Below, one piece after another: positions 18,293 through 55,061 of a stretch of DNA of 64,000 nucleotides. The stretch is from Lytechinus pictus (lineage: Eukaryota): NCBI RefSeq assembly GCF_037042905.1, contig NC_087245.1, positions 30,382,001 to 30,446,000 on the forward strand, in the 5' to 3' direction. Within the stretch, counting starts at the first letter, position 1. Each line of letters opens with the position of its first letter. Made by a program: the position numbers and the translations under genes. Under the pieces are notes generated by a model, which saw nothing but the letters and a program-made list of their open reading frames with translations, made no database searches and was not told the DNA's origin.

Positions 18293-19206
18293 ATGAAAGA
18301 CAGGAATAATATGAATCGTGCCTCAACAATGGTATTTCAGTCTCGTTTTCTAAACTTTGAAATATGCAGATGTCGATTAAATCATTGATTGTATTTTGTT
18401 TGATTTGTTTCAATTTAGACTTAGCATAATCGCACACACAATAAACTGCTAAACTGACTGAGGACATAATTAGTCCAAAGTTTACTTTTTCCCTACATTT
18501 CAAAGGGATTATTAGGCCCTGTATAGGAACACAGTCAGACTTTGTAAAAGTTAGTTAAGATATATTTCAGTGCAAGTATAGGCCTTTCTTTTTTGCCATA
18601 AATTCCAATGAGATTCAACCAGACTTTGTAATAAAAAAACTACCTCCACACGTCCATTTCGGATTTCGGTAAAATAATACAAACATAATGTGGTACATGA
18701 AATCCTGCACTTGGAATTCTCTATGTTCTTGTATTTGTGATCGGTTACAAATTTTATGAAACATGACCTCTAACATAAAAAGCACAAATAAATGTGCCTT
18801 ATCATTGATCTCATTCATAGAGACTAAGCAAAGTTTCATGATTTTATCTCAAAGCTTATCACGAATATAGAATGGGCTTATCTAAATATTTTCGTTGCGT
18901 TCTTACTCCTTATTCTCACATTATCATCTGAACGTTATGAAAATGTCAATAATTTCCAATGATTTGATGTCAGATGCAATTATTCAGATAAGTCATCAGC
19001 GACGAAGATTAACATGCACAGTCATCTATACAAACCGCAAATGTCAAATTATGTCAATCATGTTTTTAATAGTTTGCAATATAATTTGTAGTATTATAGG
19101 ACGCAGCGTGATATTAGTCTACAGTAGAAATCAGATTTTGAGTAGGATACTTTCATATTTTCATTCGCCCCTCATCATGTTAAAAAGAGCCTGCAAATTT
19201 AACAAT

Positions 19207-19626
19207 TATTCGCAGATGTGGTTTACGGTACACCATGTGGAGTGTTATAGAAACAGTGGATAGAAGAAGAAAAGAATTGGATAGGCGAGAAAGTGGAAAT
19301 TTGAGAGTAGAGTCATCTTTCTTGAATGTAGTCCTGAAAAGGACTGTAAACCAGAAGAGATATATGAGTTGAAAACAGCTTGAGTAGTAGGATGAATGAG
19401 GAGATGCTGGCTTGAGGGGGCTTGAGTCGGCGAGTAGAGATGATGAGTAGAAGTAGTAGAGAGACTCGACGTTTCGGGCAGGTTGACTGTCCGTCTTCAG
19501 ATTTCCACTTTCTCGCCTATCCAATTCTTTTCTTCTTCTATCCACTGTTTCTATAACACTCCACATGGTGTACCGTAAACCACATCTGCGATTGTACATG
19601 CCACCATGCAAACCTTCAAACAACAT
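19207..19626 (-). mobile_element. Penelope-like retroelement fragment with inverted pLTR
   Basis: Inverted arms 19210-19300 and 19501-19591; ~35-nt one-sided tail 19592-19626; TSD-like ATTTAACAAT (19197-19206, 19625-19634); hammerhead core on the minus strand; same family as 50801-51256. Confidence 0.8.
19460..19500 (-). ncRNA. Minimal hammerhead ribozyme core (stem I 5' arm lost)
   Basis: Minus strand reads CUGAAGA-C-GGACAG-UCAAC-CUGCCC-GAAAC-GUC/GAGUCUC: catalytic core, stem II and palindromic ACGU stem III typical of Penelope-like elements. Confidence 0.7.
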
Positions 19627-20576
19627 TTAACAATACTTGTTCTATCAAAGGGCGTAATAACCAGCAGTTTTAATAGCCGACACTCTAGTCCTCAAATACT
19701 CATGTCTGGCCAGGTTCATTACTCATATATAATGCATCATTCTGAGCGCTGCAGTCGTGTAATCAGGGGCGGATCCAGGACTTTTCGAAAGGGGGGCACA
19801 TTTTCCCGGGGAAATATTTGACAAGCAAAAAAAAAAAGGTTTTAACCAAAAATTAAAGGGATTTCGTCGACGAAAAAAATGGACAAGCAAAAAAAAAAGA
19901 GAGAAAAAGTTCTTCACTTTCAAAAGGGAGGGCACATTTCTGTTTTAACGGCATTTTTACATTACAAATTTTAATTGTGCCTCTCAAAGGGGGGGCAGAT
20001 GTTGCCCCCCCCCCCCCCCCAAGTAACGGAAACAGGTACTTCTCCTCTAAAAAAGCATTTTAGTTTTAGTTTCTCCACTCAAATAAAATTTCAGGCTACT
20101 TTATTCTCTTCAGTACTGATAGCTATCTCAAAAGGTACATTTTAACAATAGTTATTTATAACACACATTCAATGAGAGACCACAAAGTATTGGTCAGTTG
20201 CCCCTACACCCTTTTTAAAGGTTCCTTCACTCATATTCCACTTCCATCTGTAAAGATTATGATGTTTACATGATGATTACATTTTCGTGTAAATGTGTGT
20301 CACATCGATTTTAGATTAAAAATTTCGATAAATCCGCTTTGTTCATTGATTGATTTTGGTCGAAACCATCATAAATACGTTTTTCTGCTTTTTTTTAACA
20401 CCTTCTTGATGTCTCGGATAGAGTGGACTTTCCCTTTAAAGACATTCGTGTGTGTGGTTGTAATGTGAGGGAGTGTGTGTGTGTGTGTGTGTGCGCGCGT
20501 GGGGGATATTCCATTTGGGTATTCCTTGGGGTATACTCTAATGGCTAACCGGTCTCCACCATGCTTTCCATTGAGG

Positions 20577-47481: not shown

Positions 47482-47600
47482 GTTGTCACAGACGAAAACG
47501 GTGTCAACAAAGGTTATGGATTTGTTCACTTTGAAACCCAAGAAGCAGCCAATAAAGCCATTGAAAAGGTTAATGGCATGTTGCTGAATGGAAAGAAAGT
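47482..47600 (+). CDS. PABPC1: PABPC coding exon 3 (RRM2)
   Basis: Acceptor ttttatacag|; [39 protein letters not shown](V), with RNP1 KGYGFVHF; donor GT|gtaagt (phase 2). Confidence 0.96.
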
Positions 47601-47912
47601 GTAAGTAGAAGGAAATATCATCGTCCGATCAGGGACTTTTGTAGAGAGCTAATCTTTTGGTGGTATATTTCAGATTATCTAGTCTTTTGCTTCACATGAA
47701 GATAACATAAAATCATTAGGTATCATAATTGTATGTATTTTCTCTTCCCCCCCCCTTTTTTTTTGGTCTCATCTCACAATTGTCTATCAGAATATTCATG
47801 GATCCTTTGCCTCAGTTCTTGACCTACATGTAATGCTAAATCTTTGTGAAATATTTGTTAATTTTTCCCTTGATACACTTACATATTTTTTTGTCTTGTT
47901 TTTGGTGTGTAG

Positions 47913-48144
47913 GTACGTAGGTTATTTCATCCCTCGAAAAGAACGTTTGATGCAGATGGGTGACCATCAGAAGAAATTTACCAATGTTTTCATAAAGAAC
48001 TTGGCCGAGGACATTGATGATGTCAAACTTGCTGACTTTGGTGGCCAGTATGGACCTATCCTTTCTGCCAAGATAATGTATGACGATTCCAAGAGCAAAG
48101 GTTTTGGATTCATCAGCTTTGAGAATCACGAGTCTGCAAATGAT
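47913..48144 (+). CDS. PABPC1: PABPC coding exon 4 (RRM2 end, RRM3)
   Basis: Acceptor gtgtgtag|; YVGYFIPRKERL...KFTNVFIKNL...SKSKGFGFISFENHESAND; donor GAT|gtgagt. Confidence 0.95.
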
Positions 48145-48231
48145 GTGAGTTAGGACATTAGTTGTCTATTTTTGTCCTTTTTCTTAAACCTATACATTTT
48201 TCCCATTCTGCCCACCATCCTCTATCCCCAC

Positions 48232-48393
48232 CTGGGGCCCATGGCATATAACTTTTGCCAAAAAAGATCTCTGGCAAATGAAAACAAAAACTCTGGCAAA
48301 CAAAATTATGCCATTGAAAATTACTCGTTAAAAAAGTCTGGCAAAAAATTTGCCAGAGTTTTTTATGGCAACAATTTTATGCAACGGGTCCCA
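48232..48393. mobile_element. Small MITE (Harbinger-like)
   Basis: ctggggcccatggcata / tatgcaacgggtcccag; internal tggcaaa/ttgcca repeats. Confidence 0.55.
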
Positions 48394-48849
48394 GGAGCCT
48401 TCTCTTCTTTTTTTCCCCCCATTTACTTCAGTAGCTCCATTTACTTGTACATGTAGTTTAGTAAATTAGTACTTTGTATTTAATGTTGGTGTTAATACCG
48501 TATATTGTCAACTGAACTGAGCATCACAGTTAGTGTTCTATTAGTTTATTTTCCCAATTAACCAATTTTATGTCAGAGAAATTTGGGAGGTGCGAGTTTA
48601 ATGTTGGTGATGGTGTTTGCCTTCTCAAGCCACTGATGTTTAGTGTAAAAATCATTGGCTCTAACTTAATGAAAGAATGAAAACGTTCGGGCATTATCAG
48701 CTTTTACAGTAGAGAAAGGCGCTAATCATAAAATGCATTTTAATGAGTAATGATTTAAAAACAATGTCAAATTCAAGCATCCATCATTTTCTCCTTTTCA
48801 ATGTTCAAGAAATCTATTTACGTCATCTCTCTTTTTTTCTGGTATGTAG

Positions 48850-48966
48850 TTTGTCAACACTATAAATGGCTCAGAGGTGAACGGCAGGACCTTGTATGCT
48901 GGCCGTGCTCAGAAGAAGGCAGAAAGGGCTGCAGAACTCAAAGCCAGATTTGAGGCATTGAAACAG
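48850..48966 (+). CDS. PABPC1: PABPC coding exon 5 (RRM3 end)
   Basis: Acceptor ggtatgtag|; FVNTINGSEVNGRTLYAGRAQKKAERAAELKARFEALKQ; donor CAG|gtatgt; 117 nt, in frame. Confidence 0.92.
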
Positions 48967-49261
48967 GTATGTAAATGTAAAGATAGCCAATCCCTCCTTT
49001 CCAGTTTCTTTCTTTATGAACTCTACAAAAAAAAATGGGCAAAGATGACAATTTTGAAGAAATGTATTTATGCTTCCTTTTAAAAAGGAAACAAAACTCT
49101 GTAGTGGGGGCAGTGATACTAAGTTATGACCTGATTTCACAAATTAGAATGTGTATGATACTGATATATTCAATTCCAACTTACAGGGATTTATGGAATG
49201 AGAATTGCTAGTATGTACATGTATCAAATTAGTGCAATGTTTCGCTGAAATGCCTCGTACA

Positions 49262-49600
49262 CACTAGCGTACCTACGGGGGGGGGGGGGCAGGGGGGGCA
49301 CTCTGCCCCCCCTGACGAGTCAAAACCCATGCAAAAACGTATCTTTGCTCCCCCCTGACGGGCTTGAAAAACCTTTTTTGCCCCCCCTGACAAGCTTTAA
49401 GACCTTCAATGCACCCCTGACGAACTTGAAGAAGACCTTTTTTTTTTTTTTTGCTTGTCAATTTTTTTCTGGTACGAAATCCTTTATTTGTGATCGAAGA
49501 CCTTTTTTTTTTTTTTTTTTTTTGCTTGTCATTTTTTGCTTGTCAAATTTTTTGGCGGACGGTTTTGCCCCCCCTGTGGAAAATCCTAGGTACACCACTG
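49262..49600. mobile_element. hAT-like poly-G/poly-C MITE
   Basis: CTCGTACA|cactagcgtaccta ... taggtacaccactg|CTCGTACA (8-bp TSD); related to the partial element at 19764-20020. Confidence 0.85.
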
Positions 49601-50101
49601 CTCGTACACAAAGGTTAATCACTAAATGAGACCATTGTTGCATGTGCATTTTGCTCCGCAGACTGACTTTGAACCAATCAAAATTATTCATTCAGAATTA
49701 GTGATTGATTGCTAACCCTCGTGTTACAGGGCCCTGGTAGGGAAATTATAAGACAATAGTGAACTTGGATTCAACATTGTCTTCAATATGATTTCAATTT
49801 ATCTTGTCTCTCTGTGGCAGGACTATTGTTTTAGAAATCACATTTCTGGCTTCATTCTGAAATGATGCCTAAAGATTTCCCCATCATATGATCAGGCGAT
49901 AGATTGTATTTGCAGGGAAATTTGAATAGCACTTTCTTATATTACAGCAAAAGTGAGACTAATTACAAAGGGCAGAACAAAAATCATCAAGGGAAATCAA
50001 AAGGCCCGCCATGGTCCTGGCTTTTGACTAATTTAACCCCTGTATATTCATATTGTATTTTGATGATTGAAGTTACTTTCTTTTATTGCCTTGGTGTATA
50101 G

Positions 50102-50251
<150 letters not shown>

Positions 50252-50367
50252 TGATAATCTATTATAATGCTTGACACAATGGTCATTTAGCGAGAAGTAC
50301 AGAAGTCTGTATAAGTCGACCTGCCATGAGTGGAATAATCTCTGACTCAAGGGCATTATTTCAGACC

Positions 50368-51499
50368 TGGGGGTGTTTCACAAAGATTTCAGTATGACCC
50401 AGAGTCGCACTTAAGTGTCTAGTTGCGTACGGTATAAAAGGCATGTCTGCATTGGTCAGATCATGCCTAGGGACAGTGATTTTCCGCGATCGCGGAAAAC
50501 GGACGGAATCCACGGAAATGGCCTTTTGAAACGGAAAGGGGCATTTCAAACGGAAAATCACAGAAAACATATTTTTCCTCAGAATACACAGAACAGCAAC
50601 ATAAATTACTCCAAAATCTCAACAAAATACTAATATTGAATGGCCACAAAACCTCACAAAACACGATCTCACTTCACTACAATCCACACATCGTGACTGC
50701 TCTTCATTCCATCACACTCGATTGTACCCCTCGCCCTGGTCCTTCCTGGCCGCGCTGGCAGGGTACGATCGATGGACGTATCGAAAACATTCACATGCAG
50801 ATGTTGTTTGAAGGTTTGCATGGTGGCAAGTACAATCGCTGATGTGGTTTACGGTACACCATGTGGAGTGAAGAAGAGAAGAAATGGATAGGCGAGAAAG
50901 TGGAGATTTGAGAGTAGAGTATTCTTTCTTGAAAGTAGTCCTGAAAAGGACTGTAAACCAGGAAAGATTGATGAGTTGAGAACAGCTTGAGTAGTAGAGC
51001 TAATGAGGAGATGCTGGCTTGAGTCGGCGAGTAGAGATGATGAGTAGTAGAGACTCGCCGACTCAAGCCAGCATCTCCTCATTAGCTCTACTCAAGCTGT
51101 TCTCAACTCATCAATCTTTCCTGGTTTACAGTCCTTTTCAGGACTACTTTCAAGAAAGAATACTCTACTCTCAAATCTCCACTCTCTCGCCTATCCATTT
51201 CTTCTATCCACTGTTTCTATAACACTCCACATGGTGTACCGTAAACCACATCAGCGATTCACATGCAGGTCGTGTGTTGCTGCCCTCTACGTTTGAAGAT
51301 GTAACAGCACGATCTTGAAATGGAATTTCCGTTTTCTGACATGCTGAAACGGAATTTAAGATTTTATTAAACGGAAAATCACTGTCCCTACATGCCAAGA
51401 GGACGCGTATTACTGTGTACTGATCAATAAGATTGCACATTGCATTTCATGTACGCGTCGGCATTTAAGTGCGACTTAAATCTTTGTGAAATGCCCCCC
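50368..51499. mobile_element. Three-level nest: Harbinger-like MITE > 6-bp-TSD TIR element (50468-51390) > Penelope-like fragment
   Basis: Outer ggggtgtttcacaaagattt / aaatctttgtgaaatgcccc; middle tagggacagtgattttccg / cggaaaatcactgtcccta with CATGCC duplication. Confidence 0.78.
50801..51256. mobile_element. Penelope-like retroelement fold-back insertion (PABPC intron 6)
   Basis: 12-bp TSD ATTCACATGCAG (50789-50800, 51257-51268); 34-nt tail 50801-50834; ~200-bp inverted arms 50835-51032 and 51053-51257; homologous to 19207-19626. Confidence 0.82.
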
Positions 51500-51916
51500 A
51501 GAATATGCAAACGGGTTAAAAGCTTCACAGTCAAGTTTTGGCTATGTCAAATAGATTTCTGTGGTCCCAAGAGTTAAGATAGAGGCAGTCACCTGTACCT
51601 CCTCTGCCGTCATAGCACATCATAATGTATTTAAAGTTCCACTTTGCTATTACTAAAGTTTATGGAATTAAAACTTGTAGAATTCTTGGTTAATTTGATG
51701 TAGGTAAGTTTAGTTATGAAATCAAAAGTTTACCTCATTTTCATTCAGATATGAGACCATGATTGATGTTATTCTAGTACTGAAAATTGCTTGAATCTGT
51801 CAACTATTCCAAAGTTATCATCTATTAGTTTTGTACTTATGAGGCCCTTGGCTTAGGGTTGACAATATTCACATTCACTATACTTTATTAGATTTTAACC
51901 AGCCACTGTCTGATAA

Positions 51917-52496
<580 letters not shown>

Positions 52497-55061
52497 CAGG
52501 GTGCGACATAAGCGCTTGCCCGATTGCCCGGGGCAAGTAAAAGTTAGAGTCGGGCAAGTGTTTTGAAGCAAAGACAAAAACTGCTTGCCCGAATCGGGAA
52601 AGCAAAATTCTCCTATAGATTCCCCATATTTCACCATCAAAATATAGAAAAGAAAAAGAGACAAAAAAAAGCAATATCATTAATTTCTTCTTTCAAAGAA
52701 GTTTATAATTCAAATTGCAAAATTTGCGCCATTTTCTGCAATAAACACACAGCTCAGAGACGTACACACACACACACAGAATCAATGGCAGTCTAGCACA
52801 CCTAGCTAGCTAGCGCCTAGTCCACGCAGCCGATGCATGCAGTTAAGTTTCTACGGAGTACAGTGCTGCACGAACGAAGTTTGCTCTGGAAGAAATCTCT
52901 CACAGAACTGTCAAAATTCACATTTCTTACCAAAGAAAATTCTTGTAATGTCCATATTTCCTAAAGATTGGGGTAGCTCTGTCATTTGTAAGCAGTAAAA
53001 GGAGAAATTTTCACTTCTGTTATGCTTAAAAAAGATCGGGTTTCGAATGATCGCCTGTATCGCACACACTGAAATACATTGTTTGACAGTCCCACATATG
53101 CATTTGTGTGTATGTTGATAAACGTGGTTTCTTTCGTAACTATTTTTTTTTGCCAAGGAAATTGATAAATTTTCTTCTTTATTTATGACTGGATAGTTTG
53201 AGCTTTCTTCCTCTCTATTTTCTTTCTTTCTGCCTATCTTTCCTTCTTTTGAATCTCTTTATTTCTTTAAATTTCCTTCCTTCTTTTGTTCATTTTTTCT
53301 GTTACTATAGCTGTCTTTCTTTTTGTCATTCTTTTCTTTCTACCTTTTTTTCTTTCTTCCTTCCATCCAACCTTTGTTTACCTCCTTCTTTAATCCTTCA
53401 TTCTTTTTCCCCTTCCTTTCATTCTTTCTTACTGTCTTTCTTCCGTCCATCCATTCTTTACCTTTTCTTCCTGTCTTTTTTTTCTTCCTTACTTTCTTCA
53501 TCCCTTTCATTATTTTCTTTCTTTATTTCTTTCCTTCCTTTCTTTTTGTCTTTCATTCTTTCTTTCTCCTTTCTTTCTTTCCTTCTTTCTTTCTTTATTT
53601 CTGTCTTTCGTTCTTTTGATCTTTCCTTTTTCCATCCATCCTTTTCTTCCTAATTTCCTTCAGCAAGAAACTTATCCACAGTGTGCTGCACTCAACCCAG
53701 GTGAGGTAAATGGGTACCGGTAGGAAGTAATTCCTTAAAAAGCTGTGTGCGCTATGAACGCCTAGCTTAGCCGGGTAATATAGGAGCGCCTTGAGCACCT
53801 AACAAGGTGGATATGTGCGCAATATAAATACCCTATATTATTATTATTATTATTCCTTATTTTTTCTTTCTGCCTTCCTTCGTCCCTTTCCTTCATTTCT
53901 TTCTGTCTTTCGTTGTATCTTTCTTTTCTTTTTTCCCTTCCTTCCATCTATCCTTGTACCTTTTCTTTCTACCTATCTTCCTTCTTTCCTTTCTCTCATT
54001 TTTTTTTCTTTCTCTTTTCCTTCCTTCCATCAATCCTTTACCTTTTTTCCTTTCTTTCTTCCTTTCTTTCTTTTTACCTTTTTTCTTTCATTTTCTTTTT
54101 TATTCGTTCCTTTCTTTCCTTCCTTTCTCTTCCCCTCAGTTTTTTTCTTTGTTTCCTTCCTTCTTTCTTTCTTTCTTTCTTTCTTTCCTTCTTTCTTTCT
54201 GATTTTCTTTTTTTTTGTCTTTTGTTCTTTTGATCTTTTTTTTTTTCCATCCATCCTTTCTTTTCTTCCTTATTTTTTCTTTCTGTCTTTCGTTGTATCT
54301 TTCTTTTTTTTTTCCCTTCCTTCCATCTATCCTTATACCTTTTCTTTCTTCCTTCTTTCCTTTCTCTCATTTTCTTTCTTTCCCTTTTCCTTCCTTTCTG
54401 TTTACCTTTTTTCTTTCTTGTTTTTCTTTTATTCTTTCCTTCCTTTCTCTTCCTCTCATTTTTTTTCTGTCTTTCTTTTTTCTTTCCATCCTCCTTTCCC
54501 TTCTTTCTTCCTTTCTTTCTTTCTTTCCATCTTTCCCTTCCCCGCAGCCATTCTCTCTCTCTCCTTCTTTCTTTATTTCTTTTTTTCTTCTTTTTTTCTT
54601 CCTTCCTTCCTTTATTTCTTCGTCCTTTCTGTCTTTCTTCTTACTTTTTTTCTTTCATTCTCTCCCCCTCTCTTAATATTTTTTTTTCTCTGGTTATTTC
54701 GAGTGATTTCCCCTTTTTTTATTGTGTGTCCTAGTCCCCTCCAAAATATATGAGATTAGGAAATTAATTAAAGAGCATATTTACCATTTATTTTGTCATG
54801 ATATTCAAGATAAAAATCATTAAAAAAAATAAATACAACTACAAGGTACATCAGTAGTCATGTTGAAAAATGTATTTTTAAACCGTCAATGGAATGGTAT
54901 GTAAAACTATAAGGCTATGACTTGTTTTGAAGCAATAAAACTTTGTTTTGAAGGATTTTTTCGGGCAAGTGAAATCTATATTCGGGCAAGTATTTTCAAA
55001 CTATTTGAAAATTTACTTGCCTGACTGGGCAAGTGCTTCAAAAAAGTTATGTAGCACCCTG
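52497..55061. mobile_element. hAT-like element carrying a ~1.5-kb CT-rich tract
   Basis: TCTGGAAG|cagggtgcgacataa ... ttatgtagcaccctg|TCTGGAAG (8-bp TSD); subterminal gggcaagt/cttgccc repeats; polypyrimidine tract 53200-54700. Confidence 0.85.
53651..53853 (+). mobile_element. 5'-truncated SINE sharing the central domain of the 34417-34780 SINE
   Basis: cagcaagaaa...tgtgctgcactcaacccaggtgaggtaaatgggtaccggtaggaag; different 3' tail ending (TAT)n. Confidence 0.75.

Follow-up and report, generated by a model that had tools for sequence, protein, structure and literature searches.

As described in published reports, insertions of EN+ Penelope-like elements (PLEs) comprise a 5'-truncated unit, an adjoining inverted copy and a one-sided tail of 30-40 bp (PMC8557442), and Penelope of D. 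virilis carries a 34-bp repeat at the start of its open reading frame (ORF) (PMC2377424). An inverted truncated copy with a 30-40-bp tail is an already described PLE pattern. Minimal hammerheads of metazoan PLEs also occur as opposite-strand pairs 100-700 bp apart, with inverted copies that keep the whole motif (PMC4209133). For PAc (Poseidon of Anolis carolinensis), both target strands were nicked and extended in vitro and two start sites bounded the tail; ribozyme mutants inserted normally, uncleaved RNA was used, and no RNA-seq reads were reported to end at the cut (PMC11167929). The role of the hammerhead in PLEs and the origin of the inverted ends are treated there as open questions (PMC8557442, PMC11167929).

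Within the 64,000-nt stretch of DNA that we analyzed (the window), 50789-51268 is a real insertion in which truncated units of a terminal repeat stand head-to-head; the repeat belongs to a very abundant Penelope-like family (the insertion is called the focal copy). A second copy lies at 19197 to about 19634 (the sister copy), for a window total of two. Their features, by coordinates and strand, are these:

50789-50800, + strand: focal left target-site duplication (TSD), ATTCACATGCAG, 12 bp, beginning ATT
50801 to 50833-50836, - strand: focal one-sided tail, 33-36 nt
50834-51032, - strand: focal left, tail-bearing arm, 199 nt
51033-51052, no strand assigned: focal loop, 20 nt, a continuation of the left arm
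51053-51057, no strand assigned: junction microhomology ACTCG, 5 nt, the complement of 51028-51032; predicted cut at 51056/51057
51053-51259, + strand: focal right, tailless arm, 207 nt, with its sense on the + strand
51257-51268, + strand: focal right TSD, ATTCACATGCAG, its first 3 nt common to the arm
19197-19206, + strand: sister left TSD, ATTTAACAAT, 10 bp, beginning ATT; the right TSD follows the tail at about 19625-19634
19211-19500, - strand: sister tailless long arm, 290 nt, crossing the predicted cut and stopping at C3 of the hammerhead core
19501-19626, + strand: sister tail-bearing short arm, about 125 nt
50801-50826, - strand, and 19601-19626, + strand: segment with the tail ATG
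19462-19500, - strand: minimal hammerhead motif, with core at 19500-19494 and an extra C at 19493
19492-19487/19481-19476, - strand: hammerhead stem II of 6 bp; one of its pairs is an A-C mismatch in the sister copy
19475-19468, - strand: GAAAC-GUC, followed by the stem I 3' strand at 19467-19462

The anatomy of the focal copy (TSD, one-sided tail, arms and loop) is confirmed. The 12-bp TSD of the first-pass annotation was recovered at both flanks, a match expected by chance with a probability of about 6e-5 when a boundary slack of 30 x 30 nt is allowed, and its inverted repeat of about 200 bp with a 20-nt loop was recovered as well. The tail, given there as 34 nt, is indeed one-sided, but because AAT is common to arm and TSD its length can be stated only as 33-36 nt. 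Compared with each other, the arms show a single substitution and three indels: 19 nt found in both the right arm and the sister copy are missing from the left arm, and the right arm carries an 8-nt deletion, a 3-nt deletion and the substitution relative to the left. The left arm had been taken to end at 51056, with its terminal ACTC paired to GAGT at 51029-51032. That pairing exists, but the left arm matches the sister copy as far as 51057, and the overlap is 5 nt long (ACTCG against CGAGT at 51028-51032) and extends one base past the predicted cut. Because of this overlap the junction can be placed at any of six positions, 51052-51057, and the predicted cut (51056/51057, corresponding to 19467/19468 in the sister copy) falls inside this junction window.

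The sister copy has a different geometry. About 200 nt of its tailless arm are missing from its tail-bearing arm, part of which could have been lost after insertion, and neither of its junction ends lies at the predicted cut. The tailless arms of the two copies begin within about 3 nt of one position. Frames of 98-148 aa that cross the sister copy were rejected as coding, since frames shift between the copies.

Judged by structure and motif, both copies are Penelope-like, and the architecture proposed earlier holds for tail, inverted arms and TSDs alike. An inverted, 5'-truncated copy lies beside the terminal unit in each; the focal tail of 33-36 nt has the same boundary within about 3 nt in the sister copy; the TSDs of 12 and 10 bp lie at AT-rich sites; and the terminal repeat contains a hammerhead (19462-19500, - strand). 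Like EN+ Penelope-like insertions, the copies have an inverted truncated arm, a one-sided tail with an ATG, a TSD and no poly(A); unlike them, they consist of only about 300 nt of terminal repeat, with no ORF linked to it here. No recognizable RT or GIY-YIG frame was found among the 20 frames of at least 120 aa in the window (by eye; 3 of the 20 by Pfam), and a search with the 41-aa frame that crosses the tail matched nothing among longer proteins, a weak negative. The tail ATG stands in a CCACC context 21 nt before the end of the tail on the sense (-) strand of the focal copy and opens seven codons that run to the element end; it is possibly the start of a parental ORF, by analogy with the 34-bp repeat of D. 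virilis Penelope. As in PAc (PMC11167929), ATT opens both TSDs and no RNA reads end at the cut, and the focal tail would represent the span between two reverse-transcription start sites (PMC11167929, PMC2377424). The PAc ORF starts inside the hammerhead (PMC11167929), unlike the shifting frames of the copies described here.

Two other classifications were considered and rejected. Animal non-LTR retrozymes are non-coding, derived from PLE repeats, hammerhead-bearing and about 300 nt long (bioRxiv 10.64898/2026.07.22.740005), as are the units here, but neither of the two window copies is a head-to-tail tandem; both are inverted pairs. A MITE reading was set aside on account of the one-sided tail, the variable internal junction and the unequal sister arms, and inverted repeats do not reach both termini in the window copies.

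To survey the family we mapped 19150-19520, at 80% likeness, on two DNA contig sets from one organism (organism B) and two raw total-RNA runs from another (organism A), neither of which need be the window's own, given that at most 22% of the words of 47500-52500 occur in any listed run. Summed word depth reached up to 1.4 million on the element as compared with 36-97 on unique flank, indicating a very abundant family of roughly ten thousand copies, although summed contig depth is not equivalent to copy number. Near the start of the tailless arm, each of the two DNA runs has loose ends at 19210 and at 19215. Exact-pattern scans gave no match in metagenome contigs, viral contigs or prokaryote genomes. 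For RNA, 6% of each run was read, with about two thirds to three quarters of the reads in one direction; these reads are mostly host read-through and not the template inside the transposition complex. RNA differed from the reference in the 19262-19309 region by A>G at 50 and 53 places and by T>C at 29 and 35 places (X22, X23), as against 15 places for A>G and 3-4 for T>C in DNA; several of the differences (19283, 19291, 19292 and 19309) came mainly from reads of one direction and hardly occurred in DNA. They may reflect A-to-I editing of the hairpin RNA that inverted copies would give, although RNA and DNA come from different organisms. Loose ends past 19497 (36 and 54 reads in X22 and X23) come from an expressed copy whose antisense arm switches, at the core, to 11 nt of sense stem I/core and continues directly with the tail.

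The hammerhead core that had been noted in the sister copy was verified as a motif on the sense strand of 19500-19462, CUGAAGA-C-GGACAG-UCAAC-CUGCCC-GAAAC-GUC-GAGUCU. It contains the CUGAnGA and GAAA core, an extra base after A9, the G10.1-C11.1 pair and a palindromic AC/GU stem III (19500-19468, - strand). The minimal hammerheads of metazoan PLEs share this core, with the extra base between positions 9 and 10.1 and G10.1-C11.1, as well as a long stem II, a short stem I and a palindromic 15.2-16.2 (PMC4209133); unlike those metazoan PLE copies, the focal copy has lost the motif, and cleavage in this family is predicted only. With the variant letter found at 19478, stem II is fully paired; this variant accounts for about 94% and 91% of DNA depth (X10, X9) and is a minority in the RNA of organism A (15/81 and 30/150 reads; X22). 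No Rfam hammerhead was found at the gathering score across the window, nor at E 10 in 19400-19560, where stem I of the sister copy is cut off. Folding of the hammerhead core and of the tail region gave no excess over shuffles (z 0.48 and -0.33).

Stem I, whose absence had been named as a count against the earlier proposal, was found. Its 5' strand is missing from the window copies, having been lost at the junction in the sister copy, but loose ends past 19500 begin with GAGT to GAGTCT in all four runs (47 and 45 contigs in DNA, 106 and 143 reads in RNA) and are complementary to the strand after the cut. On this sequence evidence the family has a stem I of 5-6 bp, and its hammerhead is complete as a motif, with predicted self-cleavage after GUC. 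Agreement among the loose ends past 19500 is only 0.40-0.53, which suggests that many members of the family may stop just a few bases further upstream than the core, although distinct upstream subfamilies would look alike and a reference ending at 19500 itself makes loose ends gather there. The sister copy and 2 of the 5 listed opposite-strand joints (2 of their 10 ends) end at 19499-19500. Many copies may begin at the stem I 5' strand, about 38 nt upstream of the cut, hinting that the hammerhead start is the common 5' boundary of the copies; in D. virilis an intron ends at the same hammerhead point (PMC4209133). Three joints of unspecified type run from 19498-19500 back to 19452-19482, and if these were same-strand they would represent short tandem hammerheads able to dimerise.

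We lean, with modest confidence, towards an origin of the focal copy from two target-primed cDNAs that began at two start sites a tail apart and were joined head-to-head by microhomology. A GIY-YIG/RT protein supplied in trans would make staggered nicks at the target, and both nicked ends would prime separate cDNAs, one at the end of the tail and the other a tail's length inside. The two cDNAs would derive from the same or sibling RNAs, because the arms are far more alike than the copies are, and we infer that they met and joined through the 5-nt ACTCG/CGAGT microhomology. The junction would sit at the cut chiefly because the cDNA end is rich in G and A except for one patch of pyrimidines, the stem I 3' strand, which can pair with the GAGT repeats close behind it. 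This account draws on the observed TSD, tail, arms and overlap, on the common start of the tailless arms and on the abundance of the family. Taken alone, the focal structure fits three origins equally well: a single cDNA snapping back, a pair of cDNAs, or loss of the center at a later time. The right arm contains 19 nt that are missing from the left and so cannot simply have been copied from it, unless these were deleted afterwards. L1-type twin priming yields non-overlapping arms, and its simple form on one RNA was rejected, as the arms of the focal and sister copies overlap by 95-200 nt.

Long palindromes are prone to deletion, and the arms may initially have been longer, perhaps extending through the hammerhead, with the tip of the palindrome lost between the two ACTCG direct repeats that this sequence would have as a perfect palindrome. 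One ACTCG ends the left arm and the other lies in the right arm, opposite CGAGT; slippage between them would give exactly the junction observed, and the focal arms already carry 3 indels; only 1 substitution separates them, however, which implies that little time has elapsed, and we regard such a deletion as quite unlikely to be the origin of the junction.

The proximity of the junction to the predicted cut most likely reflects chiefly local base-pairing, for which cleavage of the RNA is not needed. Weighing against this, coincidence with the cut is expected under a uniform null in only 2% of cases for one end and 8% for four. When we considered the 221 candidate cDNA ends in 19280-19500, a fold-back of at least 5 nt within 60 nt was possible for 8, of which the ends at 19467 and 19468 were two, and these were the only 2 of the 101 ends in 19400-19500. 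Leading up to the cut, the cDNA strand consists largely of G and A (47 of the 68 bases in 19400-19467), with several GAGT among them. Nothing but the stem I strand offers a match to these, so that small-loop microhomology junctions near the 5' end would be drawn to this position whether or not the RNA was cleaved. A further point against local pairing is that, if pairing in trans is allowed at any partner site, the cut accounts for 2 of the 49 ends with 5-nt pairing (among 261), and a small loop therefore requires both cDNAs to have ended almost together.

Such near-symmetry, seen in the 20-nt loop, suggests a common end point, and is one reason to consider that both cDNAs ran to or near the 5' end of a cleaved template, one then pairing in trans 20 nt inside the other. 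Also in favor of this are the position of the cut within the junction window and the retention by the family of a complete motif, with stem II paired in most DNA depth and the stem I 5' strand present. The computed pairing energies point the other way. An end at 51057, which lies one base beyond the cut and thus implies uncut RNA, gives the register used -1.9 kcal/mol; an end at the cut gives it +0.5 kcal/mol, the poorest value among the 3 registers computed there, so that two better registers (-0.9 and -1.0) would have been open to a cut-ended cDNA; these energies are tiny, and a single non-templated base would equalise them. The fifth matching base lies beyond the cut and would have to be a chance match (1 in 4) or a non-templated addition. 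PAc, moreover, uses uncleaved RNA in vitro (PMC11167929). We consider this two-cDNA, cleaved-template route quite unlikely.

The read data speak against it as well. DNA depth showed no step at the cut in the two contig sets of organism B (507,734 and 540,382 at 19462-19474 versus 456,420 and 552,865 at 19475-19487; ratios 0.90 and 1.02). No pile-up of starts or ends was seen among 597 and 723 (1,320) RNA reads, which are mostly read-through, and presumed-sense reads cover 19468 (73 and 89) as they do 19454 (59 and 61) and 19476 (80 and 99). For the tabulation of fold-back junctions relative to GUC that the first-pass annotation had proposed, the listing covers 15 of the 42 joints and 24 of the 399 loose-end rows. 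It includes 5 opposite-strand joints, and none of their 10 ends lay in 19463-19468; the joints listed go no further than a from position of 19361, so that joints of the focal type may lie beyond. All 10 same-strand skip joints listed resume at 19458-19471, and one resumes exactly at 19468, which could record a cleaved end and counts in favor of a cleaved template; 6 of the 10 fit a subfamily with a replaced middle, homology resuming at the conserved hammerhead.

The first-pass annotation had interpreted the locus as a fossil of one cDNA that ran off a self-cleaved RNA and whose end, by pairing with the GAGT 20 nt upstream, served as primer for the second strand. As this would require, the left arm contains nearly all of the focal right arm, the loop is small and the overlap falls at the predicted end. 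Snap-back must, however, yield a tailless arm copied from the tail-bearing arm, and both window copies therefore need later deletions: the sister copy, with a tailless arm of 290 nt against a tail-bearing arm of about 125 nt, is otherwise impossible, and the focal copy requires that 19 nt were deleted from the left arm after insertion. It also leaves unexplained that in each of the two copies the second arm ends a tail short, a feature that follows from two start sites, and every point against cleavage (register fit, depth, RNA ends and PAc) applies to it. We judge it quite unlikely.

Taken over all routes, origin of the focal copy from a cleaved template appears doubtful, and the evidence points away from cleavage as a general cause of fold points. 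The locus had been put forward as direct genomic evidence for a link between ribozyme and inversion; this is not supported, since the cut is a microhomology hot spot set by the sequence and neither a depth step nor an RNA pile-up accompanies it. A narrower version, which we rate as unlikely, is that a minority of inverted Penelope-like insertions arise from ribozyme-cut RNA, the stem I strand and the downstream ACUC repeats serving as a hairpin-closing device, and that the focal copy is one product. If true, it would be the first genomic trace of hammerhead cleavage in a retrotransposition cycle. We found no paper linking PLE fold-back or inversion points to the ribozyme cut in a search covering main texts and few of the subscription papers by the Penelope groups; the link is apparently unpublished in the literature searched, and the focal locus does not establish it. 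With its very many short copies the family is a good test set, in which arm ends can be counted against the cut; as stem I itself creates microhomology, junctions need to be scored against a microhomology-matched null.

Between the hammerhead and the tail, on the sense strand, the element contains a look-alike of the histone 3' stem-loop, AGTCCT-TTTC-AGGACT, followed after 5 nt by CAAGAAAGA, a purine-rich 9-mer that is presumably the sea-urchin downstream element. It is present in all 3 of the arms that cover the region:

51130-51159, + strand: stem-loop look-alike with CAAGAAAGA, focal right arm
50923-50952, - strand: stem-loop look-alike, focal left arm
19316-19345, - strand: stem-loop look-alike, sister copy

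Rfam Histone3 (RF00032) was the top hit on a 101-nt stretch, at 15.9 bits (E 0.044) against a gathering score of 34, and we rejected a true histone 3' stem-loop because of this subthreshold score and the noncanonical spacing. The look-alike has 9 nt from the stem to AAAGA, shorter than the 16 nt from the stem to AAAGAG in a mouse H2a substrate (PMC7026596). In each of the four runs, depth has its peak over this block, and divergent subfamilies therefore seem to keep it. A literature search found no paper joining "Penelope", "histone stem-loop" and "retrotransposon".

The focal copy is enclosed by two nested elements with terminal inverted repeats (TIRs), at 50369-51498 and 50468-51390, that are likely MITEs; one has 25-nt TIRs (88%) together with an inner pair of 15 nt, the other 19-nt TIRs (100%). 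An RNA-recognition motif exon (Pfam RRM_1, E 3e-14) lies at 47683-48153 on the + strand, presumably resembling that of a poly(A)-binding protein, and the focal copy, 2.6 kb downstream, is possibly intronic. A long pyrimidine-rich (TTTC-type) simple-sequence tract at 53189-54753 is the source of several spurious open frames.
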